Of a stretch of DNA of 64,000 nt, positions 2,907 to 16,656 are shown one piece after another. The notes under the pieces are model-generated. The model saw only the letters and a list, made by a program, of their open reading frames with translations, was not told the origin of the DNA and did not search any database. A program made the position numbers and the translations under genes. Numbering within the stretch: the stretch's first letter is position 1; every line of letters starts with the position of its first letter. Origin of the DNA: Acidimicrobiales bacterium (lineage in GTDB: Bacteria; Actinomycetota; Acidimicrobiia; Acidimicrobiales; SZUA-35); assembly GCA_020630065.1 (NCBI GenBank), contig JAHDCC010000002.1, positions 204,092-268,091 of the forward strand. Direction: 5' to 3'.

Positions 2907-2949
2907 GCGGCCATCATTGACTCGGTTTCGACGGGTCGGTGGTGGCCGC
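2907..2949 (+). other. 15-bp stem-loop between pnp and dapB (gcggccatcattgac / gtcggtggtggccgc, 3 G-U pairs, 13-nt loop)
   Basis: Read directly. There is no downstream U-tract, so it may be a U-tail-less terminator, an attenuator or a processing site. It overlaps the alternative GTG start of dapB. Confidence 0.4.
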
Positions 2950-2965
2950 CGGTACGCTCAAGGTC

Positions 2966-3757
2966 ATGTCGATTCGAGTTGGAATTTTTGGTGTTGGCGG
3001 ACGTATGGGGCAGGCGGTAGCGAATGCCGTCGTCGCTGACGACGCATTGGAACTTGTGGCTGCGGTGGATCCGTCCTATGCCGGTATTGATATTGCTGAA
3101 GTAGCGCAGGTCAACGGTGTGAGTTTTGATATTGCCTCAACGTCGGAGGCGATGATCCACAGTCGGGTTGAGGTCGCAATTGATTTCACGAACCTGTCAG
3201 CGGCTCGAAAAAACCTAGCGTTTTGCGCCGAAAACGGGATCCATAGTGTGATCGGAACTTCAGGGTTTTCTGAGGACGAGTTTGACGAGATTCGCACGAT
3301 ATTTACAGCGTCGAATTGTCTTATCGCCGCGAATTTTGCGATCGGTGCGGTGTTGATGACAAAGTTTGCCGAGATGGCTGCTCCCTTTTTCGAAACCGGC
3401 GAGATCATTGAGTTCCACCACAACGGCAAATTGGATTCTCCTAGTGGTACCGCCATATATACCGCTGAGAGGATGGCGGCAGCGAGTAGTGATTGGGCAG
3501 ATGATCCGACCGAGTTGGAGACCATTCCTGGCGGTAGAGGGGCAAAGGGTGCTTCCGGGATTCCTATCCACGCGGTAAGAATGCGTGGGATGACAGCTCA
3601 TCAGGAGGTCGTTCTGGGTACGACTGGCCAGACTCTAACTCTGCGACATGATTCGTTTGACCGTTCGTCATTTATGCCGGGGGTTGTCATGGCTGCTAGA
3701 CGGGTTGTTGAAATGCCGGGACTAACAATAGGTCTTGAGGACGCCCTCGATATTTAG
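2966..3757 (+). CDS. dapB: 4-hydroxy-tetrahydrodipicolinate reductase
   Basis: N-terminal dinucleotide loop VGIFGVGGRMG and the signature EFHHNGKLDSPSGTA. I chose the ATG at 2966 (MSIRVGIFG) over the upstream GTG at 2939. Confidence 0.93.
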   Translation: MSIRVGIFGVGGRMGQAVANAVVADDALELVAAVDPSYAGIDIAEVAQVNGVSFDIASTSEAMIHSRVEVAIDFTNLSAARKNLAFCAENGIHSVIGTSGFSEDEFDEIRTIFTASNCLIAANFAIGAVLMTKFAEMAAPFFETGEIIEFHHNGKLDSPSGTAIYTAERMAAASSDWADDPTELETIPGGRGAKGASGIPIHAVRMRGMTAHQEVVLGTTGQTLTLRHDSFDRSSFMPGVVMAARRVVEMPGLTIGLEDALDI

Positions 3758-3791
3758 GGTTGTGTCTGGGATTCTGTAGCCTTCCCATAAA

Positions 3792-3817
3792 CCTATGTCA
3801 GCAAATAATGACATAGG
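3792..3817. promoter_or_regulatory. Perfect 9-bp inverted repeat CCTATGTCA-N8-TGACATAGG (core ATGTC-N10-GACAT); candidate operator upstream of oxd
   Basis: Read directly. It lies 35 to 60 bp upstream of the oxd ATG. The same core with the same spacing recurs upstream of arsR (4945..4964). Confidence 0.6.
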
Positions 3818-3851
3818 TGCTAGGGTGGGTTAGACGGAAGGAATCTTGACC

Positions 3852-4907
3852 ATGGCTTTTGAAGTTGCGTATCCACGTATCGTCAAGGGGCGGCGTCCGG
3901 AAGGGCACACGCCCAGGGCCCCTCGGTACCGACTCACCTGGGACCAACCGACCGGAGGTTTTGCTTGTGCGTATTTTGGTGTTCAAGGAAAACCGCTAGG
4001 TCAGGCTGACGAATCAGACTTCCTGCAGGCGATCACCGAGCTGTTGGGGCAGGTGAATGGGCCTCAGGCGACTGAGGTTATGAGATGTCTCGACGGCGCC
4101 GGATATCAAAACACTATGGTCGTGGCTTATTGGTCAACCATCACCGGGTTTGCTACCTGGCAAGAAACCTCTGGGTTTAGATCGTGGTTTGACCGCTCTG
4201 GCTCAGACGGCGGAGGGTTAGGGCTCTGGTTTGAGCCGTTCGTAAGCCACTTCGATCGTCACGAAACGATATATTCAGAGCCGCATTACAACGTCGGGCT
4301 TGCCAACTTGCCCGGCACATCGATTCGATCGATGACCATAAATGGCTACTTTGGGGCGGCTAGGGACCGTGTTGTGTTGTCGGCCATTGACCCTCTTGAG
4401 AACTTGCTGGAAGTTCCCGATCCTAGAGTGACACTGAGTCATGGCTCTGTGGCGCATGTTCGGGTTGCGTTGCCACACAACACTACACTGCTTCGATCCG
4501 GTCAATTCTGGGAGGATGCAGGACCGGAACAACGGGACGACTACATCGAAACGATGAAACCAAAACTTGAAAGAGGGATGGATCATCTTGCTCAGAATCC
4601 GACAGATACCGGCTGTTTGAGTCTCCGAATGACGGTCAATCTGGACGATGACGGCCAAGAACGAGCTGAGACGTCAACGGTCGCGGTCTTCCACTCGCTT
4701 GATCATCTTGAAAAATGGGCGGCTTCACACAAAACACATCTCGATATCTATAATCACGCGATCAAGATGAATAGGCATTACGGGGCCGACCGGGAAGTGG
4801 TCACGTGGCACGAGTTGTTCGTTCTACAGTACGGGGCGGTTTTTGAGTACATCAACTGCCATTCTCAGACAGGCATGATGTCATACGGTCGGGACATATC
4901 TGTATGA
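3852..4907 (+). CDS. oxd: Aldoxime dehydratase (heme-dependent Oxd family)
   Basis: About 350 aa and collinear with my recollection of Bacillus OxdB and Rhodococcus Oxd. Shared blocks include GYQNTMVVAYW, FDRHETIYSEP, NGYFGAARDR, HLEKWAASHKTHLDIYN, TWHELFVL and YINCHSQTG. ATG at 3852 preferred (SD ggaagga upstream); the ORF track starts at TTG 3846. Confidence 0.85.
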   Translation: MAFEVAYPRIVKGRRPEGHTPRAPRYRLTWDQPTGGFACAYFGVQGKPLGQADESDFLQAITELLGQVNGPQATEVMRCLDGAGYQNTMVVAYWSTITGFATWQETSGFRSWFDRSGSDGGGLGLWFEPFVSHFDRHETIYSEPHYNVGLANLPGTSIRSMTINGYFGAARDRVVLSAIDPLENLLEVPDPRVTLSHGSVAHVRVALPHNTTLLRSGQFWEDAGPEQRDDYIETMKPKLERGMDHLAQNPTDTGCLSLRMTVNLDDDGQERAETSTVAVFHSLDHLEKWAASHKTHLDIYNHAIKMNRHYGADREVVTWHELFVLQYGAVFEYINCHSQTGMMSYGRDISV

Positions 4908-4944: not shown

Positions 4945-4964
4945 ATGTCTGTACATATTGACAT
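4945..4964. promoter_or_regulatory. ATGTC-N10-GACAT inverted repeat; candidate operator upstream of the ArsR gene
   Basis: Read directly. It lies 19 to 38 bp upstream of the arsR ATG. Core half-sites and spacing are identical to the oxd-proximal palindrome. It overlaps the tandem repeat ACATATT-G-ACATATT. Confidence 0.5.
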
Positions 4965-4982: not shown

Positions 4983-5321
4983 ATGGATAGTGACGCAATC
5001 TTTTCAGCATTGAGTGATCCGAATCGCCGGGCGATTATGGCGCTAATCGGTGAAAAAGAAGAGATGGCGGTGGGGGAGATAGTCGAGCGTTTCGACACTA
5101 TTGGGCGGACCGGAATCTCTTCTCACCTTCGTGTATTGCGACTTTCCGGATTGGTGACCGAGCGTCGTGAGGGTAACTTCCGTTATTACTCCATAGCAAC
5201 ACAGTCAGCGGACACTGTAGTTGCGTTTTTGTCGACGGTCTACAAAGACTCGCTAAGTGGTTTGAGCGTATCAGTCGATACCTCTTCCACGGAGTTCGCT
5301 GCCGACGAACGGACAGCTTAG
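4983..5321 (+). CDS. ArsR/SmtB-family winged-helix transcriptional regulator
   Basis: 112 aa with the ALSDPNRRAIMALI opening and an HTH region (VGEIVERF...ISSHLRVLRLSGLV...REGNFRYY) typical of the ArsR family. I saw no obvious metal-binding Cys motif. Confidence 0.85.
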   Translation: MDSDAIFSALSDPNRRAIMALIGEKEEMAVGEIVERFDTIGRTGISSHLRVLRLSGLVTERREGNFRYYSIATQSADTVVAFLSTVYKDSLSGLSVSVDTSSTEFAADERTA

Positions 5322-5333
5322 CGAAAGGTAGTA

Positions 5334-6767
5334 ATGGGCGATCTCGTCTTTACCAGTCAAACAAAGGTGGAGGTCGGCCCAGCCGACTTGTTTGACCTAT
5401 TCGGTTCTGGTGATCGGGAACTGGGTTGGTTGTTTGGTTCTGAGGCGGCAGCTTTACGCCCGGGGGGACTAGTTCGATTGTCGTTGCCGATCGGTGGACT
5501 CTCTGACGCAGACGGCACCGCCCGTATCCAATCGGTAGCCCCGTTTCGACGCATCCTCTTGGCCCATGAGTCGCCGTGGTCGGGGTACATCGATTGTCGT
5601 ATCTCTCCAGGCAGGTCAGGGGGTTCTCAGGTTCGGGTCACGGTTTCAATCTCGCAGGCCGAAATAAGTCGCCTTGGGGCCGGGTTTGGGTTGGCCGTTT
5701 CGCCGCCGCCCAACGGCCATATTTCGGTAGGGCTCTTGACATCGCTTTCCGGTTCTAACGGCATCTTTGGCCGCTCTACCGTCAACTGTGCCCAGCTCGC
5801 GATTGATGAGCTCAACGCCGACGGTGGGGTTCTTGGTCGGCAGGTTAGCTTGTCGGTCGCTGACGATGCCACCAATCCGGTTGTTGGGCAGATCTCGATG
5901 GAGCGACTGCTTAGAACCCCAAATCTAAGTGCCGTAATCGGGTACCACAATTCTGCCACCTTCGCGGTGACAAGTGGTCTAGCCATCGACGCTGGCATTC
6001 CTTATCTTTACACGCCGGTCAGTGAACCGGGTGGTCACCATCCACTGTTGTTCAGGTTGGGAGGCACTCCGCTTGAGCAACTGCGGTTCGCGTTGCCGCG
6101 GCTGGCTCGGGAGACTGGTGGGACGAGGTGGTTTATAGCGGGAAACGATTACACCTGGCCTAGGGCTATTGCGGCTACTGCCAAACCTGTAGTTGAGGGG
6201 ATGGGTGGGACGATTGCCGGTAGGGGCTTTTTGCCGATCGGTACCCGTCGGTTTGAGCCGATAATCGAGGCGATTCGTCGAAGTGGCGCAGAGCATATTA
6301 TTTCTGGATTTGTGGGGCAGGATCAGATTCGTTTTGAGCAGGCCTGTGTTGCTCACGGTTTGCGAGATTCGACCCGTACCTTTGCCCCGTTTTTGGACGA
6401 CGTGGTGGTTGAGCATCTTGGCGATTCGGCTGCCGGTGTGTGGAATGTGCTGGGCTATTTTGAAGGGCTTGACACGACGGAAAATCGTGATTTCTTAAGC
6501 CGGTATAAGGTTCGATTTGGTGAAAATGCTGCTCCGGTATCTGCGGCAGCAGAGGCCGTGTATGAGGCGACCCATCGTTGGGCTCGTGCATGTGTTGCCG
6601 GTCGGGGTGTCGATGCGTCGGCCGTTGTGCATACGTTGAGGGACGCTCGATTTGAAGGTCCCCGGAGGCGAACGAGTTTAGCGTCACCCGATCGCATGCT
6701 GTTGGGTGAAGCGACATCGACCAAGGTTCGTGTGCTCGACAAATTGCCGTCGGTTCATAGCGCCTGA
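5334..6767 (+). CDS. Cytoplasmic fusion protein: N-terminal SRPBCC/AHSA1-like domain plus C-terminal AmiC-type (type 1 periplasmic-binding-fold) ligand-binding domain
   Basis: 477 aa with no signal peptide. From about residue 125 it is collinear with the two exported binding proteins in this cluster (NDYTWPRA vs NDYIWPRG; LNADGGVLGR vs INESGGIGGR). The first ~120 aa have the beta-rich pattern of SRPBCC/AHSA1 proteins that are usually encoded next to ArsR genes. The start is 12 nt after the arsR stop. Confidence 0.7.
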   Translation: MGDLVFTSQTKVEVGPADLFDLFGSGDRELGWLFGSEAAALRPGGLVRLSLPIGGLSDADGTARIQSVAPFRRILLAHESPWSGYIDCRISPGRSGGSQVRVTVSISQAEISRLGAGFGLAVSPPPNGHISVGLLTSLSGSNGIFGRSTVNCAQLAIDELNADGGVLGRQVSLSVADDATNPVVGQISMERLLRTPNLSAVIGYHNSATFAVTSGLAIDAGIPYLYTPVSEPGGHHPLLFRLGGTPLEQLRFALPRLARETGGTRWFIAGNDYTWPRAIAATAKPVVEGMGGTIAGRGFLPIGTRRFEPIIEAIRRSGAEHIISGFVGQDQIRFEQACVAHGLRDSTRTFAPFLDDVVVEHLGDSAAGVWNVLGYFEGLDTTENRDFLSRYKVRFGENAAPVSAAAEAVYEATHRWARACVAGRGVDASAVVHTLRDARFEGPRRRTSLASPDRMLLGEATSTKVRVLDKLPSVHSA

Positions 6768-6956
6768 CAGGCCTTGGGTCTCGCTGTGAGGCGTCGTTTA
6801 TCTATTCGTGATTCGGGTTGTGGAGGATGTGCAGCTGACTCCCTGTACAATCTAAGTCAATACGTAGTGACATAGCTCAAGGGGGAGCTGTCGCTGGGAG
6901 AAATGGCGGTAGCGATATTCGCTGTTGTCATATATCGACATAGATAGGGGAGTATT

Positions 6957-8270
6957 GTGAGTAAGAGCAACAATAATTCGATTGAAGACCCACGAGAGAG
7001 CAACAAACTTGGGCGGCGCCTGGTACTTAAAACCGGTCTGGGGTTTGGGGCAGCCGCCGCACTCGCTCCAGTCCTTGCCGCTTGTTCGTCAGATGCCGCA
7101 GACGAGACCAGTAACACTGGTTCAAACGACACCGCTACCAGCCCAGACGGAACACCAGCTGAAGCAACTGGTGACCCAATAAAGGTCGGATATATCGGTG
7201 ATCTAACCGGGGTACTCGCTCAGCAAGGCCAAATCCAGTTGAACTGTTTCGAACTTGCGGTCAAACAAATAAATGAGTCCGGGGGAATCGGTGGCCGCCC
7301 AATCGAAGCGGTTACCGAAGACACCGCAAGTGACTCAGCACAAGCCATCGAAAAGTCGACCAAGCTGGCTCTAGAAGATGAAGTTGTCACCGTGATTGGT
7401 GGCATCACAAGTTCGGTACGAGAGGCGGCTTTGACCGTCCTGCCTAACGAGAAGATCCCATTCTTTTACACGACGTTCTACGAAGGGGCCGCGGCTGGAG
7501 CAACCGCCTGTGACGAATACCTGATTGCTACTGGACAGATACCGAATCAACAAGTAGCCCCACTCGTTCCATACCTATCCGAAAACGTGGGCAAGAAATA
7601 CATTGTCGTTGGTAACGACTACATCTGGCCTCGAGGCATGACAGAAGTACTCGAAGAGCTTCTGGTCGAAGAGGGCGGTGAAGTAGTTTCATCAACATAT
7701 TTCCCACTCGGGACTACAGACTTCGGTCCGTTCTTTAAAGAACTAGCCGACGCCGACGCAGACATTTGCTGGGTTACCCTGGTCGGCTCTGACCAAGACA
7801 CATTCCTGCAGCAATATAAACAGTTCGGTGCCACAACCCAAATCGTTTCGCTATCGATGAACGACGATATCGCCGCTACGAATCCGGAAATATCCGAAGG
7901 CGTTATCACGGTTCAGAACTACCTGGCTGGGATTGAGAGTGGAAACAACACCAAATTCCTTGAAGAGTACCGCGCCGAAAATGGTGCTGATACCTTCCCG
8001 ATCGCTATCGGGGAAGGCGCCTACAACTCGGTCTATCTATTCAAAGGGGCAGTCGAAGCAGCCGACGGTTCAACCGACCCAACCGACTGGATTCCGAAAT
8101 TGAGCGGAGTGAGTTTCGATTCCCCAAGTGGAAGTATCGGCATTGACGCCGACACACAGCACGCCATCACCAACAGCTACATCGGCAAGGTTGGTGCCGA
8201 CGGTGTCATCGAAATTCTCGACGAAGAGAAAGCCGTTGTACCGGTAGTCGAAGGCTGCATTCTTTCATAA
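6957..8270 (+). CDS. ABC transporter substrate-binding lipoprotein, UrtA/FmdD/AmiC family (urea/short-chain-amide type), paralog 1
   Basis: Signal with RR and a lipobox (RRLVLKTGLGFGAAAALAPVLAAC|SS). Family blocks FYTTFYEG, PNQQ, GNDYIWPRG and IDADTQH match UrtA-like proteins as I recall them. GTG start with ggggag SD. Confidence 0.85.
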   Translation: MSKSNNNSIEDPRESNKLGRRLVLKTGLGFGAAAALAPVLAACSSDAADETSNTGSNDTATSPDGTPAEATGDPIKVGYIGDLTGVLAQQGQIQLNCFELAVKQINESGGIGGRPIEAVTEDTASDSAQAIEKSTKLALEDEVVTVIGGITSSVREAALTVLPNEKIPFFYTTFYEGAAAGATACDEYLIATGQIPNQQVAPLVPYLSENVGKKYIVVGNDYIWPRGMTEVLEELLVEEGGEVVSSTYFPLGTTDFGPFFKELADADADICWVTLVGSDQDTFLQQYKQFGATTQIVSLSMNDDIAATNPEISEGVITVQNYLAGIESGNNTKFLEEYRAENGADTFPIAIGEGAYNSVYLFKGAVEAADGSTDPTDWIPKLSGVSFDSPSGSIGIDADTQHAITNSYIGKVGADGVIEILDEEKAVVPVVEGCILS

Positions 8271-8370: not shown

Positions 8371-9237
8371 ATGGATCTTCTATTCTCTCTGCTCCTCGAC
8401 GGTGCCTTCCTGATCAGCATTCTAGGTTTGGTCGCCCTTGGGCTCGGGGTAATCAACAACCTGTTAGGTATCACCAATATGGCTCATGGCGAGTTCATTG
8501 CGGTCGGGGCTTACACAGTAGTTGTGCTCACCGACCAAGGGCTGCCCTACTGGGTCACCCTCTTCATAGCGGCGCTGGTTGGTATGGCGCTAGGGGTGTT
8601 GTTGGAATCAACACTGATTCGGCGCCTTACCGACCGGCCGCTCGACGCCATCTTGGTGACGCTCGGGTTGGGGCTTGTAATGCAGCAAGTACTTAAAGAA
8701 ATGTTTGGATCAACACCTCGGTCGGTTGTGTCGCCGGTGTCGGGCACGTTCGACGTAGCCGGGCTGAGCTACCCGTTGTTTCGAATAACGATAATTGTGG
8801 CCGCAGTAGCCGCTGTCGCTGCCACGTTTCTGTTCTTCACCAAAAGTTCCTTTGGGCTCGTCGTCCAATCGATCTTTCAGAACAGGGAATCTGCACTAAC
8901 AAATGGAGTGAACGCCGGTAAATACAACCGTTTGGCATTCGGTATAGGGACAGGCCTGGCCGCTCTGGCTGGCAGCTTACTCGCTCCGAATGCGGCCGTT
9001 CTGCCAACGATGGGTGCGTTTTATCTTGCCCCGGCGTTTGTTGCGGTCATTCTCGGAGGTTCGAAACGATTGATGGGCGCCGTAGCGGGGGCGGCCTTTA
9101 TGGGAGGTTTAGAAGTGGTTATTGGTGAATCGTTCACCCGAACGTGGGGGCGAGCCGGTGTTCTTGTGTTAGCCATTATCGTCATACGTATGTGGCCTGA
9201 AGGGCTACTGCGAGAGCCTAAGGCGCGTGTAGCATGA
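8371..9237 (+). CDS. ABC transporter permease, LivH/UrtB-like
   Basis: 288 aa, multi-pass hydrophobic, branched-chain/urea-type permease pattern. Sits in an operon with the binding protein and ATPases. Confidence 0.85.
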   Translation: MDLLFSLLLDGAFLISILGLVALGLGVINNLLGITNMAHGEFIAVGAYTVVVLTDQGLPYWVTLFIAALVGMALGVLLESTLIRRLTDRPLDAILVTLGLGLVMQQVLKEMFGSTPRSVVSPVSGTFDVAGLSYPLFRITIIVAAVAAVAATFLFFTKSSFGLVVQSIFQNRESALTNGVNAGKYNRLAFGIGTGLAALAGSLLAPNAAVLPTMGAFYLAPAFVAVILGGSKRLMGAVAGAAFMGGLEVVIGESFTRTWGRAGVLVLAIIVIRMWPEGLLREPKARVA

Positions 9238-10274
9238 CGGCGGTCGACACAGTGGCCGTGCCGAATAACGCCAACTCGGCTCGTGACTGGATTAGCGGGG
9301 CGAGGACACTAGGTGGCACGGGGCTTCTTCTGGCAGCGTTAGCTATATTGCCGTCGTTTCTTGGCCCGTTCAACATAGTTCTCGGCGCTCAGATTCTCGC
9401 CTACAGCGTGGTGGCATTGAGTCTGCAGTTGTTGTGGGGTCGAGCCGGCCAGCTGAGTTTCGGGCAGGCGGCATTTTTCGGAATGGGTGCCTATGCGTAT
9501 GCCATTCTGGGAACTCGCTATGAACTGAACGGCTGGTACATTTTGGCCGCAGCGCTCGTGATTCCAGCTGGCACGGCTTTGATCCTTGGCTACTTCCTAT
9601 TCTTCGGACGGGTCAGAGACGCCTACTTCAGCATCGTCACACTAGCGTTCGTTCTGGTCGCCAACCAAGTGGTCATTTCGTGGCGGTCAGTGACCGGGGG
9701 CGACACCGGACTCACCCGGGTTCCTGGTCTTGTGTTGCCGTTTGGAGGGTTCGAAGTCGACTTTACGTCGCGCAACGGACGGTACTATCTCGGCTTATTG
9801 ATTTTCTCTATTGCCTTATTCGTAGCACTCCTTGTCCGTCGAAGCTCGTTTGGCTTAGTGCTAGAAGCGATTCGAGATGACGAAAATAGGGCATCGTTTC
9901 TTGGCTACAACACGCCGATGTATCTGACGATGGCGTTCACCCTTTCGGCTGCGCTTGCGGGAGTCGCCGGGGGAGCGTTCGCTTCGATCAGCACGCTCGC
10001 CGCACCGGACATGATCGATCAGTTTCTCTCCATCCAGATTCTTACCTGGGTTGCCATAGGGGGCCGAAACTATCTAGCTGGAGCCCTTGTCGGCACCGTT
10101 GTCATGAGGGTCCTAAACAATCAGGTTTCTGATGTCTTGCCGGAATCGTGGCCACTAGTGGTTGGTTTGTTCTTTGTCGTAGTCGTCATGTTCTTTCCCG
10201 CCGGGCTGGTTGGCGGGTTGGCGAAACTTCGCGCACAGCTAGCGTCTCGCCGAGTTGAGAAGGCGAGGGCCTAA
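9234..10274 (+). CDS. ABC transporter permease, LivM/UrtC-like
   Basis: 346 aa, multi-pass. There is a 4-nt ATGA overlap with the preceding permease gene. Confidence 0.85.
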   Translation: MTAVDTVAVPNNANSARDWISGARTLGGTGLLLAALAILPSFLGPFNIVLGAQILAYSVVALSLQLLWGRAGQLSFGQAAFFGMGAYAYAILGTRYELNGWYILAAALVIPAGTALILGYFLFFGRVRDAYFSIVTLAFVLVANQVVISWRSVTGGDTGLTRVPGLVLPFGGFEVDFTSRNGRYYLGLLIFSIALFVALLVRRSSFGLVLEAIRDDENRASFLGYNTPMYLTMAFTLSAALAGVAGGAFASISTLAAPDMIDQFLSIQILTWVAIGGRNYLAGALVGTVVMRVLNNQVSDVLPESWPLVVGLFFVVVVMFFPAGLVGGLAKLRAQLASRRVEKARA

Positions 10275-11014
10275 TGGACGAATCGCAATCGTTAGCGTTG
10301 GAATCGGTAACTGTCCGATTTGGGGGACTGACCGTCCTCGATGACTTATCACTTCGATTCGGGCATTCTCCGATCAGTTCACTAATCGGACCGAATGGGG
10401 CGGGCAAGACCACCGTATTTAACACCTTCAGTGGCATCGTAAAGCCAGTGTCGGGAAGTCTTTTACTCAACGGGAAAGACATGACTGGCCACTCTCCGAT
10501 TGAGATCGCTCGAGCGGGTGTTGTACGAAAATTTCAAGTTCCCACGGTCTTCCACAATCTAAGTGTCGGCAACAATCTTAAGGTGGCCGCACAGTCTCCG
10601 CGGATAGAAACTGCTGGTTCGGCCAAAGACATTCGCTGGAGTACAGGCGACGTAGCAGAGAAACTCGGACTGTCTTCAAAGATGAAAACCTTGGCCGCCG
10701 AGCTGTCACATGGAGAGCGTCAGTGGCTGGAAATCGGCATGGCGTTCCTAGCTCACCCGCGATTTTTGTTACTGGACGAACCAGCCGCCGGGCTTGGACC
10801 TGAAGAATCCGACCACACTGCAGGCCTCATTCGGACCATATCGGAGTTCTGCAAAACCATCGTGATTGAACATGACATGAGATTCATACGTGAACTTGGT
10901 GGTGACGTCACCGTTCTCCACCAAGGCCGTCTGCTGAAACAGGGAACCATGGAAGAAATAGAAGCCGACCACATTGTGCGCGATGTATACCTGGGACGAG
11001 ACGCCGATGCTTAA
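10274..11014 (+). CDS. ABC transporter ATP-binding protein, LivG/UrtD-like
   Basis: Walker A GPNGAGKTT, signature LSHGERQ, Walker B LLLDEP. Confidence 0.9.
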   Translation: MDESQSLALESVTVRFGGLTVLDDLSLRFGHSPISSLIGPNGAGKTTVFNTFSGIVKPVSGSLLLNGKDMTGHSPIEIARAGVVRKFQVPTVFHNLSVGNNLKVAAQSPRIETAGSAKDIRWSTGDVAEKLGLSSKMKTLAAELSHGERQWLEIGMAFLAHPRFLLLDEPAAGLGPEESDHTAGLIRTISEFCKTIVIEHDMRFIRELGGDVTVLHQGRLLKQGTMEEIEADHIVRDVYLGRDADA

Positions 11015-11708
11015 CATCGAAAACGTTGTGTCCGGGTACGGCAAAATAAAAGTCCTCGACGAGGTGAGTTTTTCTGTCGGCGCAGGCGAACGCGTCGTGT
11101 TGCTCGGACGAAACGGGATGGGAAAGACCACCTTGGCGAAGACTGTCGTAGGGTTGCTTCCGCTCTGGTCCGGTTCGTTGTCGCTGGAATCCAACACCAT
11201 TAACGATTGGCCTCCGTATCGACGGACTTGGGACGGTATCGGCTACGTCCCTCAAGGCCGGGGCTTGTTCCCCAAGTTGACGGTGGAAGAAAATTTGCGG
11301 ATGGGTCTGTATGGTACAAGACCGAGAACCAACTCGATAGCTGACGAAATCTTCGACTATTTTCCTGTTCTCGGCGAGCGTAGAAACCAGGCCGCTGGGA
11401 CGTTGTCGGGAGGAGAGCAACAACAACTTTCGATTGGGCGAGCCTTAGTTGGTAAACCGTCGGTTCTCATATTGGACGAACCTTCCGAAGGTATTCAGCC
11501 AAACCTAGTTGCTTCGATAGCCGACCGTCTTAAGTCGCTGGCAGTAGATACCGGGCTTGCTGTACTGCTGATCGAACAGAACATAGACGCCGCTTTGCGT
11601 TTCGCCGAACGATGTGTGTTTATCGACAATGGCACAGTCGTGCACGCCTGCAGTGCCGAAGACCTCAAACAAGACGAGAGCCTAGTTGGGCAACTATTGG
11701 GCGTCTAA
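11007..11708 (+). CDS. ABC transporter ATP-binding protein, LivF/UrtE-like
   Basis: Walker A GRNGMGKTT, signature LSGGEQQ, Walker B LILDEP. ATG at 11007 (MLNIENV) overlaps the upstream stop (ATGCTTAA). Confidence 0.9.
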   Translation: MLNIENVVSGYGKIKVLDEVSFSVGAGERVVLLGRNGMGKTTLAKTVVGLLPLWSGSLSLESNTINDWPPYRRTWDGIGYVPQGRGLFPKLTVEENLRMGLYGTRPRTNSIADEIFDYFPVLGERRNQAAGTLSGGEQQQLSIGRALVGKPSVLILDEPSEGIQPNLVASIADRLKSLAVDTGLAVLLIEQNIDAALRFAERCVFIDNGTVVHACSAEDLKQDESLVGQLLGV

Positions 11709-11811: not shown

Positions 11812-13362
11812 ATGAGTATCCAAACACCAGATGATGAAGAACTTAAACAGATAGCAGATAGATGGCGGTTAGACATCGCCTCAAACGACATTGGCATCTA
11901 CAGACAATTGGTAGACGACGCCCTCGATTCATACGGCCGAGTCGATGAGCTCTACGCCGAACAACAACCGGTAACTCCACAACGAACGAGTCGTGAACCT
12001 GACGGACAAGACAATGCGTTGGGTGCCTGGTACCGGCAATGTTCGATCAAAGAGCAGAGCTTCGGCCCATTGGCCGGGAGCACCTTTGCGGTCAAAGACA
12101 ACACCGCGGTAGCCGGCGTGCCAATGATGAACGGCTCGCGAATCGTTGAAGGCTATGTTCCCGCGGTTGACGCGACCATAGTCAAACGGATACTGGCAGC
12201 CGGAGGCGAAATCAAAGGTAAATCGGTTTGTGAAGACCTTTGTCTGTCGGGGGCCAGCCATACTGCGGCAACTGGTCCGGTACGTAACCCCTGGGACCTG
12301 ACGCGAACCGCTGGTGGCTCTTCAGGAGGAAGCGGCGCATTGGTTGCGTCGGGCGAAGTGGATATGGCTACCGCCGGTGACCAAGGCGGCTCGATTCGGA
12401 TGCCGTCAGCGTTCAACGGCATCTGCGGTCTGAAACCTACCTTCGGTCTCGTACCCTACACCGGTGCCTATCCGATCGAATGGACCATCGACCATCTGGG
12501 TCCGATCGCCCGCAATATCTCAGATCTTGCAACGTTTCTAACCGCTATCGCAGGTCCTGACGGACACGACCCTCGCCAAACCGATGCTCCGTCCGGCGTT
12601 GACTACTCAGCGGGACTCAATGACGGTATTGGCGGGCTCCGAATCGGCATCGTCGCCGAAGGGTTCGGATGGGAAGGTCGAAGCGAACAAGACGTCGATG
12701 ACATGGTCATGGCGGCCGCTCACCGGTTTAAAGACCTAGGAGCAGAAGTCTCGACAATCTCCATTCCGCTCCATCGAGACGCCGAACATGTATGGCGTGT
12801 ACTAGGGACCGAAGGAGGGGTGTGGCAGATGATTCGAGGAAACGGTTACGGCATGAACTACCGAGGCCTCTATGACCCCGAGCAGATTGAGCACTCGAAT
12901 ACGGGTTGGAAAACCAACGCCCGACATGTTTCTAAAACCTTAAAAACAGCGATTCTGTGCGCCGAGTACACCATCGAACAAACCGGTGGGTCAGCTTACG
13001 CCAAAGCGTCTAACGTACGCCCAAGAATCAACGCCGCCCTCGATGCTGCGTTGACCGAATATGACGTGTTGTGTTACCCGACTTTGCCGTATCGGGCAAA
13101 GAAAATTCCTTCGAGTGATGCGCCGATAGAAGAATATGTGGCCCGAGCTTGGGACATGATGCCGAACACGCAAGTAACAAACGTGACCGGACACCCTGAC
13201 CTAACAATACCGGTCGCGCAAGGTGAGGGTCTCCCGGTCGGAATGTCGATTGTAGGAAAACAATGGGACGAAAGAACCGTCCTGCGGGTAGGTCGAGCTT
13301 ACGAAACCATCGTCGGAGGGTTTGAACTCTCACCGATGGCTAAAGAACGCCTGAACGCGTAA
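11812..13362 (+). CDS. Amidase (amidase-signature family), closely resembling the nitrile-hydratase-linked enantioselective amidase of Rhodococcus/Brevibacterium
   Basis: AS motif GGSSGGSGALVASGEVDMATAGDQGGSIRMPSAFNGICGLKPTFGLVPYTG. It is long-range collinear with the Rhodococcus amidase as I remember it (KDNTAVAGVPMMNGSRIVEGY, CEDLC, TIDHLGPIAR). ATG at 11812 (MSIQTPDD) preferred over the ORF-track start at 11686. Confidence 0.9.
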   Translation: MSIQTPDDEELKQIADRWRLDIASNDIGIYRQLVDDALDSYGRVDELYAEQQPVTPQRTSREPDGQDNALGAWYRQCSIKEQSFGPLAGSTFAVKDNTAVAGVPMMNGSRIVEGYVPAVDATIVKRILAAGGEIKGKSVCEDLCLSGASHTAATGPVRNPWDLTRTAGGSSGGSGALVASGEVDMATAGDQGGSIRMPSAFNGICGLKPTFGLVPYTGAYPIEWTIDHLGPIARNISDLATFLTAIAGPDGHDPRQTDAPSGVDYSAGLNDGIGGLRIGIVAEGFGWEGRSEQDVDDMVMAAAHRFKDLGAEVSTISIPLHRDAEHVWRVLGTEGGVWQMIRGNGYGMNYRGLYDPEQIEHSNTGWKTNARHVSKTLKTAILCAEYTIEQTGGSAYAKASNVRPRINAALDAALTEYDVLCYPTLPYRAKKIPSSDAPIEEYVARAWDMMPNTQVTNVTGHPDLTIPVAQGEGLPVGMSIVGKQWDERTVLRVGRAYETIVGGFELSPMAKERLNA

Positions 13363-13402: not shown

Positions 13403-14362
13403 ATGTCGACAAATGAGCTTAAGGTGGCAGTGGTTCAAGCCTCTTCCCTTGGGGGCGGAACCGCTGCCACCTTAGACAAAGCTACCGAACTCATCGCTGA
13501 ATGCGGCCGACAAGACGTCTCGTTGGCCGTATTTCCTGAAGCCTTTATCGGTGGTTACCCCAAGGGTGCGAACTTCGATATTTTTGTCGGCGCACGGACC
13601 TCTAAAGGGCGTCAAGAGTACGCTGACTATTGGAGCCAATCTATTGCTGTGCCTGGACCTGAAACTTCGACTCTAGGTCAAGCGGCAAAAGATTCGGAGC
13701 TTTACCTCGTGATTGGGGTAGTCGAAAACGAAGGCGGCACGCTCTACTGTTCGGTCCTCTATTTCGGGCCGTCCGGTGAGCTGCTTGGCAAACATCGAAA
13801 GACGATGCCGACTGGGGCCGAGAGGCTTTGCTGGGGATTTGGTGATGCGTCTACCATGCCCGTGATCGACACTCCTTGGGGCAAACTAGGGGCAGTTATT
13901 TGTTGGGAGAACTATATGCCGCTGCTCCGAACAGTGATGTACGGCAAAGGGGTTACGTTGTATTGTGCACCGACAGCCGATGACCGAGATACCTGGGCAG
14001 CCTCGATGCAACACATCGCTCTCGAAGGCAGGTGCTTTGTGCTGTCAGCTTGTCAATACTTAGAACGGCGCGAATTTTTTCCAACGATGGCTAACAAAAT
14101 TTCCGACAGTGAAGAGGACGTCTTGATGCGTGGGGGAAGCCTGATTGTGAACCCGATGGGGCAGATCGTTGCGGGCCCGCATTTTGGTGAAGAGACTATG
14201 TTGGTGGCCACACTCGATATCGATCAAGTGGTAAAGGCAAAGTTCGATTTTGATGTTGTCGGCCACTACGCACGACCGGATCTTTTTAACCTTGTTGTCG
14301 ATGAGCGGCCAAAGTCTCCAGTAACGAGTATTTCGTCCGAACTTTCTCCAACCGAGGATTAG
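13403..14362 (+). CDS. Nitrilase (carbon-nitrogen hydrolase superfamily, branch 1)
   Basis: Catalytic E-K-C context: FPEAFIGGYP, HRKTMPT, CWENYMPLLR. 319 aa. Confidence 0.9.
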   Translation: MSTNELKVAVVQASSLGGGTAATLDKATELIAECGRQDVSLAVFPEAFIGGYPKGANFDIFVGARTSKGRQEYADYWSQSIAVPGPETSTLGQAAKDSELYLVIGVVENEGGTLYCSVLYFGPSGELLGKHRKTMPTGAERLCWGFGDASTMPVIDTPWGKLGAVICWENYMPLLRTVMYGKGVTLYCAPTADDRDTWAASMQHIALEGRCFVLSACQYLERREFFPTMANKISDSEEDVLMRGGSLIVNPMGQIVAGPHFGEETMLVATLDIDQVVKAKFDFDVVGHYARPDLFNLVVDERPKSPVTSISSELSPTED

Positions 14363-14481: not shown

Positions 14482-15762
14482 ATGTCGGCAAGTAACAATT
14501 CACCGAAGACGGCGGCCGCCCCCAGCCTGGGACGACGATCGATACTTCGCGCTGGCCTAGGACTAGCGGCGGCTGCCGCTCTCGCTCCTGCGCTCGCAGC
14601 CTGTTCGTCTGACTCATCAGTCACCAACGGGAGTGGCAAACCTGCTGCCGCGGGAAGCTCTGACGGTCCGATAAAGCTTGGTTTCCTCAGCGACTTCACC
14701 GGCACACTCGCCACTCAAGGAGAGATCCAGTTCAACTGTTTCAACCTTGCAGTGAATCAGATTAACAGTGCCGGAGGTATCGCCGGTAGAGAGATTCAGG
14801 TCATCGAGGAAGATGACGGCAGCGACTCGACCCAGACCATCGAAAAAGCGACGAAACTTGCGTTGGAAGACGAAGTTGTTGCCATCGTGGGCGGAATAAC
14901 AAGTCTGACGCGTGAAGCGGCCTTGACCGTGCTGCCAGCCGAAAACGTTCCATACCTGTACACGACGTTCTATGAAGGCGCGGCCGCTGGTGCGGTTGCC
15001 TGCGACAGTAACCTGATCAGTACTGGACAGGTTCCGAATCAGCAGATGGAGCCTTTGATCCCGTACCTGACGGAGAACGTCGGCACAAGCTACATGATTG
15101 TTGGGTCAGACTATATTTGGCCACGCGGGACCACCGAGGTCTTAGAACGCTTGGTTGACGATGTCGGCGGATCGGTGCATTCAGCCACATACTACCCGTT
15201 TGGAACTACCGACTTCGGTCCGTTCTTGCAAGAGTTGGAGGAAGTCAATCCAGATATTTGTTGGGTGTCTCTAGCGGGCGCCGATATCAATACATTTCTT
15301 AAGCAATACCAGCAGTTCGGGGCAAGCGCTCAGATCGCTGCCATATCAATGGACGAAGTCATAGCTTCGTTGAGCCCGGGAACCGGTGTTGGTGCAATTA
15401 CCTCGCAATCGTATTTCATGGCAGTCGACAACGAAAACAACAAGAAATTTCTTGCTGACTATCGAACCGCCTACGGTGAGGAAAGCCTCGTGAACGGTAT
15501 TGGTGAAGGTGCCTACAGTGCCGTGTATTTGTTCAAAGGGGCAATCGAGGCAGCTGACGGGTCAACCGATCCTGAGGTGTGGAAACCGAAACTCGGTTCG
15601 GTGACGTTTGAAGCGCCAGGTGGAACCATAAAAGTTGACCCGGAAACCCAACACGTCATCGGCAGTAACTATATTGCGCAGGTCAATCCAGACGGCACGT
15701 TAAAGATACTGTCTGAGCAGCATGACGTTGCGCCAAAGGTCGATAGCTGCAACCTGATTTAG
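14482..15762 (+). CDS. ABC transporter substrate-binding lipoprotein, UrtA/FmdD/AmiC family, paralog 2
   Basis: Signal RRSILRAGLGLAAAAALAPALAAC|SS. Collinear with 6957..8270. My hand count over a ~128-aa central stretch gave about 70% identical positions; this was not computed over the full length. Confidence 0.85.
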   Translation: MSASNNSPKTAAAPSLGRRSILRAGLGLAAAAALAPALAACSSDSSVTNGSGKPAAAGSSDGPIKLGFLSDFTGTLATQGEIQFNCFNLAVNQINSAGGIAGREIQVIEEDDGSDSTQTIEKATKLALEDEVVAIVGGITSLTREAALTVLPAENVPYLYTTFYEGAAAGAVACDSNLISTGQVPNQQMEPLIPYLTENVGTSYMIVGSDYIWPRGTTEVLERLVDDVGGSVHSATYYPFGTTDFGPFLQELEEVNPDICWVSLAGADINTFLKQYQQFGASAQIAAISMDEVIASLSPGTGVGAITSQSYFMAVDNENNKKFLADYRTAYGEESLVNGIGEGAYSAVYLFKGAIEAADGSTDPEVWKPKLGSVTFEAPGGTIKVDPETQHVIGSNYIAQVNPDGTLKILSEQHDVAPKVDSCNLI

Positions 15763-15840: not shown

Positions 15841-16656
15841 ATGGCGTTAGGTTTGGGAAGTGTGGGACGTTCAGAAGCTCAATCTGACTATCAGCTTGTA
15901 ATCCGACGCGCTTTAGAGCTAGCGGACGTGGACGAGACAGCTGGCGGACCCGTCGAACCGGTATCGTTATCGAACCTTCCGAGAGAGGCTGTTCAAGAAA
16001 TCGCGGATGAGCTCGGTATCCCTCAAGCTGCTTTAGCTCAAGCGTTGGCTGAACATTCTGCCGGCGTCAACCAAGACTCATCGCTCGCCGAACGGGTTCT
16101 AGGGGCGAGGTTCGTTTCGGCCAGTCATCGCTGCGGGTTCGAAGAAGAAAACGCTAAACAGCGGCTGTATTCTTGGCTTGAGCGGGGGCATGGGTTACGA
16201 ACCAGAACTACCGCTGAGGGTCTCGTGGTTGGTCACCGTCGCCGAGGGGCAGTCGGGCGTGTTTCTAACACTGTCCGTAAAGCTCGCGGTGAGCAGGGTC
16301 TGAGTACCTCTCGAGAGGTGCGGGCCGCGGTCGTATCTGTAGGTTCGAACAATACCGGGCTGTCAGTGGTCGCTGATGTGTCAGATCAACGGGCGAAGTC
16401 GGTGGCTGCAGGTGCAGTGACTACGGCTGGTGCCGCCGGGTTCGCCAGTATTGTTTTAATCTTCACCCCGGTCGGGCTTATAGGGCTACCAGTTTCGGTT
16501 ATCGCAGGTTTCACCGTTGCTCGATTAACCCATCGTTCTACGGTCCGACGGGTGAAAGCCGAGGTCGAAATGACGGTCGACGCGGTTGCCTCAGGTCAGC
16601 AGCCAGCTGGGGTTGTAGCCTCGGTCGTAAACCGGCTTCGCCCAAAAGAGTTCTAG
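15841..16656 (+). CDS. Hypothetical protein with a C-terminal hydrophobic (probable membrane) segment
   Basis: 271-aa ORF with coding-like composition. Hydrophobic stretch AGAVTTAGAAGFASIVLIFTPVGLIGLPVSVIAGF. No family recognised. Confidence 0.45.
   Translation: MALGLGSVGRSEAQSDYQLVIRRALELADVDETAGGPVEPVSLSNLPREAVQEIADELGIPQAALAQALAEHSAGVNQDSSLAERVLGARFVSASHRCGFEEENAKQRLYSWLERGHGLRTRTTAEGLVVGHRRRGAVGRVSNTVRKARGEQGLSTSREVRAAVVSVGSNNTGLSVVADVSDQRAKSVAAGAVTTAGAAGFASIVLIFTPVGLIGLPVSVIAGFTVARLTHRSTVRRVKAEVEMTVDAVASGQQPAGVVASVVNRLRPKEF

Follow-up and report, generated by a model that had tools for sequence, protein, structure and literature searches.

Two adjacent genes in a 64-kb stretch of the genome of an Acidimicrobiales bacterium (the window, meaning the whole stretch that was analysed) encode a small winged-helix repressor of the ArsR/SmtB family and a cytoplasmic sensor in which an N-terminal SRPBCC/AHSA1-like domain is fused to an AmiC-type ligand-binding domain. 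Judged from its sequence, the pair is a distant relative of the NhlD/NhlC (Nhr2/Nhr1) regulators that govern nitrile-degrading genes in Rhodococcus, and we consider it probable, if far from certain, that it forms a two-protein switch of this type, with the amide-bound sensor acting as an anti-repressor and the AHSA1-like domain being the likeliest contact for ArsR. The original prediction for this locus, made without database searches, had presented the coupling of an AmiC-like sensor to an ArsR repressor as a wiring different from that of known systems. This novelty did not survive: full-length homology identifies an AmiC-like sensor acting on an ArsR repressor as the NhlC/NhlD scheme, and the wiring is thus already known. 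The element for which we met no earlier description is the N-terminal AHSA1-like domain of the sensor family, which links the family to ArsR-AHSA1 gene pairs. The domain architecture, the homology to the Rhodococcus proteins, the linkage to ArsR, the ligand-binding triad and the operator motif were all computed here; the direction of regulation is taken from earlier work on Rhodococcus.

Both proteins of the pair have counterparts in Rhodococcus. Along residues 1-466, the sensor is 37% identical (E=1e-91) to the protein occupying the NhlC position in pNit of R. rhodochrous, and along residues 6-419 it is 36% identical to the "nitrile hydratase regulator1" of Rhodococcus sp. JVH1, making it closer to these proteins than to the exported binding proteins of its own cluster (25%). 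The window ArsR is 46% identical over 93 amino acids (aa) to the ArsR of the R. rhodochrous L-NHase (nitrile hydratase) cluster in pNit, both proteins being 112 aa long. In pNit of R. rhodochrous ATCC BAA-870 (locus L091), the successive genes encode ArsR (112 aa), a "substrate-binding protein" (471 aa), nthB, nthA, an accessory protein, a HoxN-type cobalt transporter and an amidase, an order that corresponds to the arrangement nhlD-nhlC-nhlB-nhlA-nhlE-nhlF-amdA reportedly found in the L-NHase cluster of strain J1 (Komeda, Kobayashi and Shimizu, J Biol Chem 1996). The corresponding locus of Rhodococcus sp. KRD197 (L027) comprises ArsR, the sensor, an amidase, the alpha (with a CSLCSC motif) and beta components of an Fe-type nitrile hydratase, an activator and an aldoxime dehydratase (Oxd), and its sensor is 67% identical to the GenBank entry named "nitrile hydratase regulator1 [Rhodococcus sp. 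JVH1]". Komeda, Kobayashi and Shimizu reportedly found in 1996 that NhlD, which is said to resemble ArsR, CadC and MerR, acts negatively and that NhlC, said to resemble AmiC, acts positively, with induction by amides, and they are said to have proposed that NhlC blocks NhlD when amide is present. The genome paper on strain BAA-870 treats the regulators in general terms only.

As in NhlD/NhlC and in Nhr2/Nhr1, the latter from Rhodococcus clusters for Fe-type nitrile hydratase, the window has the ArsR gene followed by the sensor gene, a two-domain sensor without a signal peptide, a nitrile/amide catabolic setting and a similar ATGTC-N10-GAC(A/G)T site upstream of structural genes; with full-length similarity, an ArsR gene directly upstream and a nitrile/amide cluster around it, the window sensor is classed with the NhlC/Nhr1 type. 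It differs in the putative regulon, which comprises an aldoxime dehydratase, a nitrilase, an amidase and a UrtA-like ATP-binding cassette (ABC) importer with two binding lipoproteins of the twin-arginine translocation (Tat) type, no nitrile hydratase being found in the window by tblastn. It also differs in the host, whose nearest relatives are Acidimicrobiia-class bins, many of them from sponges; the closest relatives of the regulator pair itself are likewise found in Acidimicrobiia metagenome bins from sponges.

The C-terminal part of the sensor matches Peripla_BP_6 (E=7e-67), and its closest solved folds are UrtA urea-binding proteins and AmiC (Foldseek E of 1e-22 to 1e-28), the AmiC entries 1pea, 1qnl and 1qo0 being matched at E of about 1e-22 with template modelling (TM) scores of 0.83-0.85 normalised to AmiC; the AmiC-type binding domain expected in this part of the protein was therefore recovered. 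In AmiC of Pseudomonas aeruginosa, the amide is held by S85, Y104 and Y150. When AmiC, the sequence of which had been checked to be identical to chain A of PDB entry 1pea, was aligned with the sensor family, these residues fell on S207, Y226 and Y273 of the window sensor. S207 and Y273 are invariant across the family, whereas residue 226 is Tyr in the Acidimicrobiia-like branch, including the window, and His in the Rhodococcus/Pseudonocardia branch, a further difference from NhlD/NhlC. The sensor thus keeps the amide-binding Ser/Tyr/Tyr triad of AmiC. A clear paralogy of this part of the protein with the cluster's two exported binding proteins had also been claimed; the low identity makes this an overstatement. 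By direct reading of the sequence, without a predictor, the sensor has neither a signal peptide nor a lipobox, as had been noted for the signal peptide, and its N-terminus, MGDLVFTSQTKVEV, forms strand 1 of a globular domain in the AlphaFold model, whereas both neighbouring binding proteins carry, by the same reading, an RR motif and a LAAC lipobox.

In Actinomycetota, over 90 homologues that are full-length (about 480 aa) align with the window sensor from residue 1 to the end, contain the same two domains and keep the N-terminal motifs GWLFG, P52 and HExPWxG. The resemblance of the first ~120 residues to SRPBCC/AHSA1 proteins, which had been suspected from the letters, was upheld by the fold, the family profile and the matches of other members; residues 1-129 of the window sensor themselves have no match in Pfam at E<=10, so the assignment is drawn from these other sources. 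Modelled alone by AlphaFold (predicted local distance difference test, pLDDT, of 86.5), the domain consists of a strand, a helix, five strands and a short helix, a compact form of the helix-grip fold of the SRPBCC superfamily in which the C-terminal helix is short, at about 10 residues. The top 50 Foldseek matches listed for this model in the PDB are all of the SRPBCC/Bet v 1 type (E from 6e-6, with TM scores of only 0.5-0.6) and include PR-10 proteins, SMU.440, SA2116, 3q64, 3q6a, CalU16, NE0264 and the human Aha1 entry 8z3h. Among the N-terminal domains of 19 family members searched against Pfam, 5 matched AHSA1 (best E 7.6e-6) and 4 matched Polyketide_cyc2. The family profile matched a single chain in the PDB, again 3q6a (5.6e-4), and, when run against 1.84 billion representative proteins, retrieved 97 clusters only, nearly all of them 470-490-aa fusions or fragments thereof, together with a few stand-alone bona fide AHSA1 proteins at E of 1e-5 to 7e-4. 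The domain is accordingly a shortened and very divergent SRPBCC domain with AHSA1 as the nearest family. Precomputed Pfam matches flag Polyketide_cyc2 in at least one member (P0207), and the databases therefore see the domain sporadically. In the literature searched, we found no description of the SRPBCC/AHSA1 nature of the N-terminal 120 residues of the sensor family or of a link to ArsR-COG3832 (AHSA1) modules.

Several irregular family members were inspected alongside. The shorter proteins P0213-P0219 and P0076, candidates for stand-alone versions of the domain, turned out to be fragments or frameshifted gene calls. In protein P0288 (518 aa), both sensor domains are preceded by an ArsR helix-turn-helix and a low-complexity stretch; this arrangement most likely reflects two adjacent genes merged by a frameshift and not a natural fusion of three domains.

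The protein encoded upstream of the sensor matches HTH_20 (1e-9), HTH_5 (5e-6) and the NCBIfam ArsR/SmtB model NF033788 (3e-21). Direct reading of its sequence revealed no Cys and one His, located in the recognition helix, so that the usual metal sites would not be usable; the Cys/His metal-binding site of ArsR/SmtB metalloregulators is absent. ArsR proteins linked to AHSA1 have likewise been reported to lack metal motifs (PMC2701414). The 477-aa open reading frame (ORF) begins 12 nucleotides (nt) after the stop codon of arsR, in agreement with the spacing given originally, and is preceded by an AAAGG ribosome-binding site.

The linkage of the two genes was assessed in relatives, with one genome per species, a fusion locus being defined as a match starting at or near residue 1 of the sensor. 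The 34 fusion loci found come from Acidimicrobiia metagenome bins (many from sponges), Nonomuraea, Streptomyces, Allokutzneria, Pseudonocardia, Nocardioides, Solirubrobacteraceae, Actinomycetospora and Rhodococcus. An ArsR gene lies directly upstream on the same strand in all 34, at distances of -26 to +140 nt except in L020, where the ArsR gene seems frameshifted (two tblastn pieces), whereas none of the 46 loci encoding the binding domain only has an adjacent ArsR gene. A search with the ArsR protein yielded four further homologues, and in all four cases a binding-fold protein of 470-481 aa follows. Every one of the 34 fusion loci adjoins at least one gene for an amidase, nitrile hydratase, Oxd, nitrilase or UrtA-like ABC component; the nitrile hydratase genes occur in beta-alpha or alpha-beta order, and cobalt transporter genes are also found among the neighbours.

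Two further kinds of locus are worth recording. In Streptomyces sp. CA-249302 (L025, 9698-11080), a relative that is 42% identical over the binding domain only has no recognisable N-terminal domain and no ArsR gene, and the neighbouring amidase gene is oriented the other way; decay or rewiring may have produced this copy. In an Amycolatopsis genome (L084, 5888-6939) and in a metagenomic contig that also encodes a nitrile hydratase in beta-alpha order (L088, 2822-3899), the ArsR-sensor pair is flanked by the cobalt-transporter genes CbtA and CbtB, a parallel to the HoxN-type cobalt transporter found in the R. rhodochrous cluster.

A candidate operator is shared by the promoters of the cluster. 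The exact palindrome ATGTC-N10-GACAT occurs 3 times in the 64 kb (O1 to O3 in the table below), against about 0.06 copies expected, and all three copies lie upstream of oxd or arsR; the two sites singled out in the original prediction (O1 and O3) share this core. Allowing at most one mismatch, the window contains 6 copies, compared with a mean of 1.9 in shuffled sequences, and 1 of 100 shuffles reaches 6. The core of O1 lies 28 nt upstream of the oxd start and O1 overlaps the only sigma-70-like promoter match between positions 3700 and 7000, and the one-mismatch site O4, 84 nt ahead of the first binding-protein gene, is immediately preceded by a TACAAT box. Across the fusion loci and the window, 5 exact copies were found at the N10 spacing (3 in the window, 1 in L021 and 1 in L017, the last at position 35 and far from the cluster), and none at N8, N9, N11 or N12; the binding-domain-only loci have no exact copy at any spacing from N8 to N12. 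Sponge-metagenome relatives carry ATGTCAA..CTCACAT between the sensor gene and the transporter operon, the position equivalent to O4. The amidase gene is preceded by an exact copy in L021, by a one-mismatch copy in L011 and by two one-mismatch copies in L030, a one-mismatch copy follows immediately after the sensor gene in L022, and one-mismatch or exact copies precede arsR in L015, L017, L021 and L024. In pNit of R. rhodochrous, the one-mismatch site ATGTCATCAGGTCATGACGT stands about 60 nt before nthB, and the positions of the motif in Rhodococcus are suggestive. On these grounds, ATGTC-N10-GACAT is proposed as the putative shared operator motif of the cluster promoters.

The switch that we favour would operate as follows. 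A dimer of ArsR would most likely sit on the palindromes in front of oxd, of its own operon and of the transporter operon, and would thereby repress the genes for the aldoxime dehydratase, the ABC importer, the amidase and the nitrilase as well as its own operon. A small inducer of the amide type would bind in the AmiC-like cleft of the cytoplasmic sensor, and the ligand-bound sensor would neutralise the repressor, that is, act as an anti-repressor, with the N-terminal AHSA1/SRPBCC-like domain as the surface most likely to touch the ArsR dimer. This role is assigned to the N-terminal domain because the domain and the ArsR gene always co-occur, the L025 relative without the domain being also without ArsR, and because stand-alone AHSA1 genes habitually partner metal-motif-free ArsR genes. 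That ArsR and the sensor touch directly, in which direction this contact acts, what the N-terminal domain does and which ligand is bound are what we infer from the computed features; for a relay to ArsR through the SRPBCC domain, as had been envisaged, the only supporting observation is the strict co-occurrence (34 of 34 versus 0 of 46 loci).

Several observations weigh against this switch or parts of it. The link of the N-terminal domain to AHSA1 is remote, as reflected in the absence of a Pfam match for the window's own residues, in the low Foldseek TM-scores and in the weak hhalign comparison of the domain profile with one stand-alone AHSA1 protein (L042; E=0.0045, probability 7.8%). In the Rhodococcus loci, counts of the operator motif at up to two mismatches are not above chance. 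As the window has no nitrile hydratase, the sensed ligand could differ from the amide inducers of Rhodococcus; T106 of AmiC, moreover, aligns with P228 of the sensor. Finally, in AmiC it is the binding-fold domain itself that contacts AmiR, so that an interface on the N-terminal domain is not required.

This last point leads to the main rival, which we hold to be rather unlikely: an NhlD/NhlC-type switch in which the AmiC-like domain contacts ArsR and the AHSA1-like domain has another function, be it dimerisation, stabilisation of the binding domain or provision of a second pocket for a hydrophobic ligand (such as a nitrile or aldoxime). The contact of AmiC with AmiR is indeed made by the binding-protein fold of AmiC (PDB 1qo0), small molecules are the classic ligands of SRPBCC domains (PMC2577659), and the full-length AlphaFold model of the sensor, built on the family alignment, has a predicted template modelling score (pTM) of 0.90, which suggests a packing of the two domains into one rigid unit. 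However, a scaffold or pocket would have to be reconciled with the constant company of the N-terminal domain and an adjacent ArsR gene, including their joint absence from L025, with the habitual partnership of stand-alone AHSA1 proteins and ArsR proteins free of metal sites (PMC2701414; L042), and with the shortness of the helix that closes the SRPBCC cavity, about 10 residues in this domain.

It is improbable that the 477-aa protein is no regulator at all and instead serves as a binding component, chaperone or buffer for a transported amide, with ArsR sensing the ligand alone. The database name of the family, "ABC transporter substrate-binding protein", would fit such a role, and an ABC importer directly follows the sensor gene in the window and in its sponge-metagenome relatives; but the sensor lacks the signal peptide and lipobox that the true binding proteins next door possess, many relatives (for instance Rhodococcus, Pseudonocardia and Nocardioides) carry the ArsR-sensor pair without a nearby ABC transporter, and the Rhodococcus homologue reportedly has a genetic role in regulation. 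Even less credible is a toxin-antitoxin-like or stress module of ArsR and AHSA1-like parts with no specific tie to amide sensing. ArsR-COG3832 pairs did emerge from a search for toxin-antitoxin-like two-gene modules, but the authors of that search considered a function in regulation or resistance more likely (Makarova et al. 2009, PMC2701414), and in the present case an amide-receptor domain is joined to the module, which always stands in nitrile/amide catabolic clusters and shares an operator motif at catabolic promoters. The idea that an assembly or sequencing error fused two genes into the long ORF has nothing in its favour and can be struck out, the reality of the fused two-domain ORF having been confirmed by an identical protein with the same neighbours on 4 independent contigs, by the more than 90 homologues of about 480 aa with both domains and by a full-length model (pLDDT 89) that is confident across the domain junction.

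Comparison with better-known systems places the pair more precisely. With AmiC/AmiR of P. aeruginosa it shares a cytoplasmic amide receptor of the type-I binding fold, the Ser/Tyr/Tyr triad and, if the switch works as proposed, the control of another regulatory protein, but the partner in the window is an ArsR-type DNA-binding repressor, whereas that of AmiC is an ANTAR antiterminator, and the sensor has the extra N-terminal AHSA1-like domain and is only ~23% identical to AmiC. The output differs too: according to Rhodococcus genetics, the ligand-bound sensor reportedly inactivates its partner, whereas AmiC releases AmiR on binding amide. No ANTAR domain was detected in the subset of window ORFs scanned, namely the cluster genes scanned and, of ten ORFs scanned elsewhere in the window, the eight that were AmiR-sized; the statement that the locus has no ANTAR/AmiR gene agrees with this, and an antitermination system of the AmiC/AmiR type was set aside. 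With UrtA/LivJ-type binding proteins, the sensor shares the Peripla_BP_5/6 families and the fold, UrtA structures being its best structural matches; it differs from them by lacking an export signal, by its added N-terminal domain, by its distance from the cluster's own binding proteins and by its linkage to a repressor gene. An exported ABC binding protein was rejected as the identity of the sensor, which has no export signal or lipobox and begins with a folded domain.

The third comparison concerns the ArsR-AHSA1 (COG0640-COG3832) pairs, which are widespread (259-280 in 750 genomes) and the function of which was left open, as the original prediction had correctly stated (Makarova et al. 2009, PMC2701414). 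In these pairs, AHSA1-family genes are regularly accompanied by genes for ArsR proteins that lack metal motifs (PMC2701414). The window resembles such a module in having a metal-motif-free ArsR gene followed directly by a gene that opens with an AHSA1-like domain, and differs in that the domain is shortened (~117 aa), very divergent and fused to an amide receptor. A stand-alone pair was seen in Streptomyces sp. AD2-2 (L042, 5696-6699, minus strand), where the genes for an ArsR protein of 124 aa, 32% identical to the window ArsR, and an AHSA1 protein of 210 aa (PF08327, 2.8e-14) overlap by 4 nt from stop to start, and a binding-protein gene lies a few kb away. None of the four nearest ArsR relatives examined is paired with a stand-alone AHSA1 gene, all being associated with the fused form, and the route from a two-gene module was thus not seen. 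We offer tentatively, as a possibility that we rate below even, that sensors of the NhlC/Nhr1 type are ArsR-AHSA1 modules that acquired an AmiC receptor, that their AHSA1-like domain is the anti-repressor surface for the metal-blind ArsR dimer, and that stand-alone ArsR-COG3832 pairs might by extension be ligand-controlled switches with AHSA1 as the sensor and ArsR as the DNA-binding output.

Members of the sensor family carry the public names "ABC transporter substrate-binding protein", "urea transport system substrate-binding protein" and "nitrile hydratase", and one record only is called "nitrile hydratase regulator1"; the analysis thereby corrects a systematic mis-annotation of cytoplasmic regulators. 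It extends the range of the amide switch from Rhodococcus to Acidimicrobiia-like bacteria and to a cluster of Oxd, nitrilase, amidase and importer genes. The proposed operator would be useful for engineering amide- or nitrile-inducible expression. To our knowledge, the AHSA1-like domain of this family is the first genetically anchored handle on the function of ArsR-AHSA1 pairs, a question that has been open since at least 2009 and can now be approached by simple binding assays.

Table. Features of the nitrile/amide cluster and candidate operators, in window coordinates.
Feature	Position	Strand	Remarks
dapB	2939-3757	+	
Candidate operator O1	3791-3818		Perfect 10-nt inverted repeat ACCTATGTCA-N8-TGACATAGGT; core ATGTC-N10-GACAT at 3795-3814
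Haem-containing aldoxime dehydratase (Oxd)	3846-4907	+	PF13816, E=2.7e-82
Candidate operator O2	4878-4897		Exact ATGTC-N10-GACAT; within the 3' end of oxd, 86 nt upstream of arsR
Candidate operator O3	4945-4964		Exact ATGTC-N10-GACAT; 19 nt upstream of the arsR start codon
ArsR/SmtB-family winged-helix repressor	4983-5321	+	112 aa; NhlD homologue
Cytoplasmic sensor, whole	5334-6767	+	477 aa; NhlC/Nhr1 homologue
Sensor N-terminal domain	5334-5684	+	aa 1-117; SRPBCC-like, nearest AHSA1
Sensor AmiC/UrtA-type domain	5721-6698	+	aa 130-455; type-I periplasmic-binding-protein fold
Candidate operator O4	6854-6873		AAGTC-N10-GACAT, one mismatch; inside palindrome 6852-6875
UrtA-like binding lipoprotein 1	6957-8270	+	Exported; RR motif and LAAC lipobox
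ABC importer	8371-11708	+	Permeases 8371-9237 and 9234-10274; ATPases 10274-11014 and 10974-11708
Amidase-signature amidase	about 11812-13362	+	PF01425, 6.8e-88; NF005565, 3e-205
Nitrilase (CN_hydrolase)	13403-14362	+	
UrtA-like binding lipoprotein 2	14482-15762	+	Exported

The cluster, the genes of which all lie on the plus strand, directly follows the housekeeping genes pnp (362-2863) and dapB. Its aldoxime dehydratase also matches the NCBIfam model for aliphatic aldoxime dehydratase, at 4e-55 and under the family cut-off. The four genes of the ABC importer (two permeases and two ATPases) were assigned by gene order and similarity in related loci, not by Pfam. The listed amidase ORF opens at 11686, at a TTG within the preceding ATPase gene, and the family match begins at residue 43 (MSIQTPDDEEL), so that the ATG near 11812 is probably the true start. 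The whole window contains no transfer RNA genes and no Rfam matches at gathering score. Directly 3' of the second binding lipoprotein lies an ORF of 271 aa (15841-16656) with no Pfam match and a hydrophobic stretch near its C-terminus, which may be part of the cluster. Aplysina sponges make nitrile metabolites such as aeroplysinin-1 (PMC3766881), and host-derived aldoximes, nitriles or amides are, as a matter of speculation, possible substrates of the cluster.

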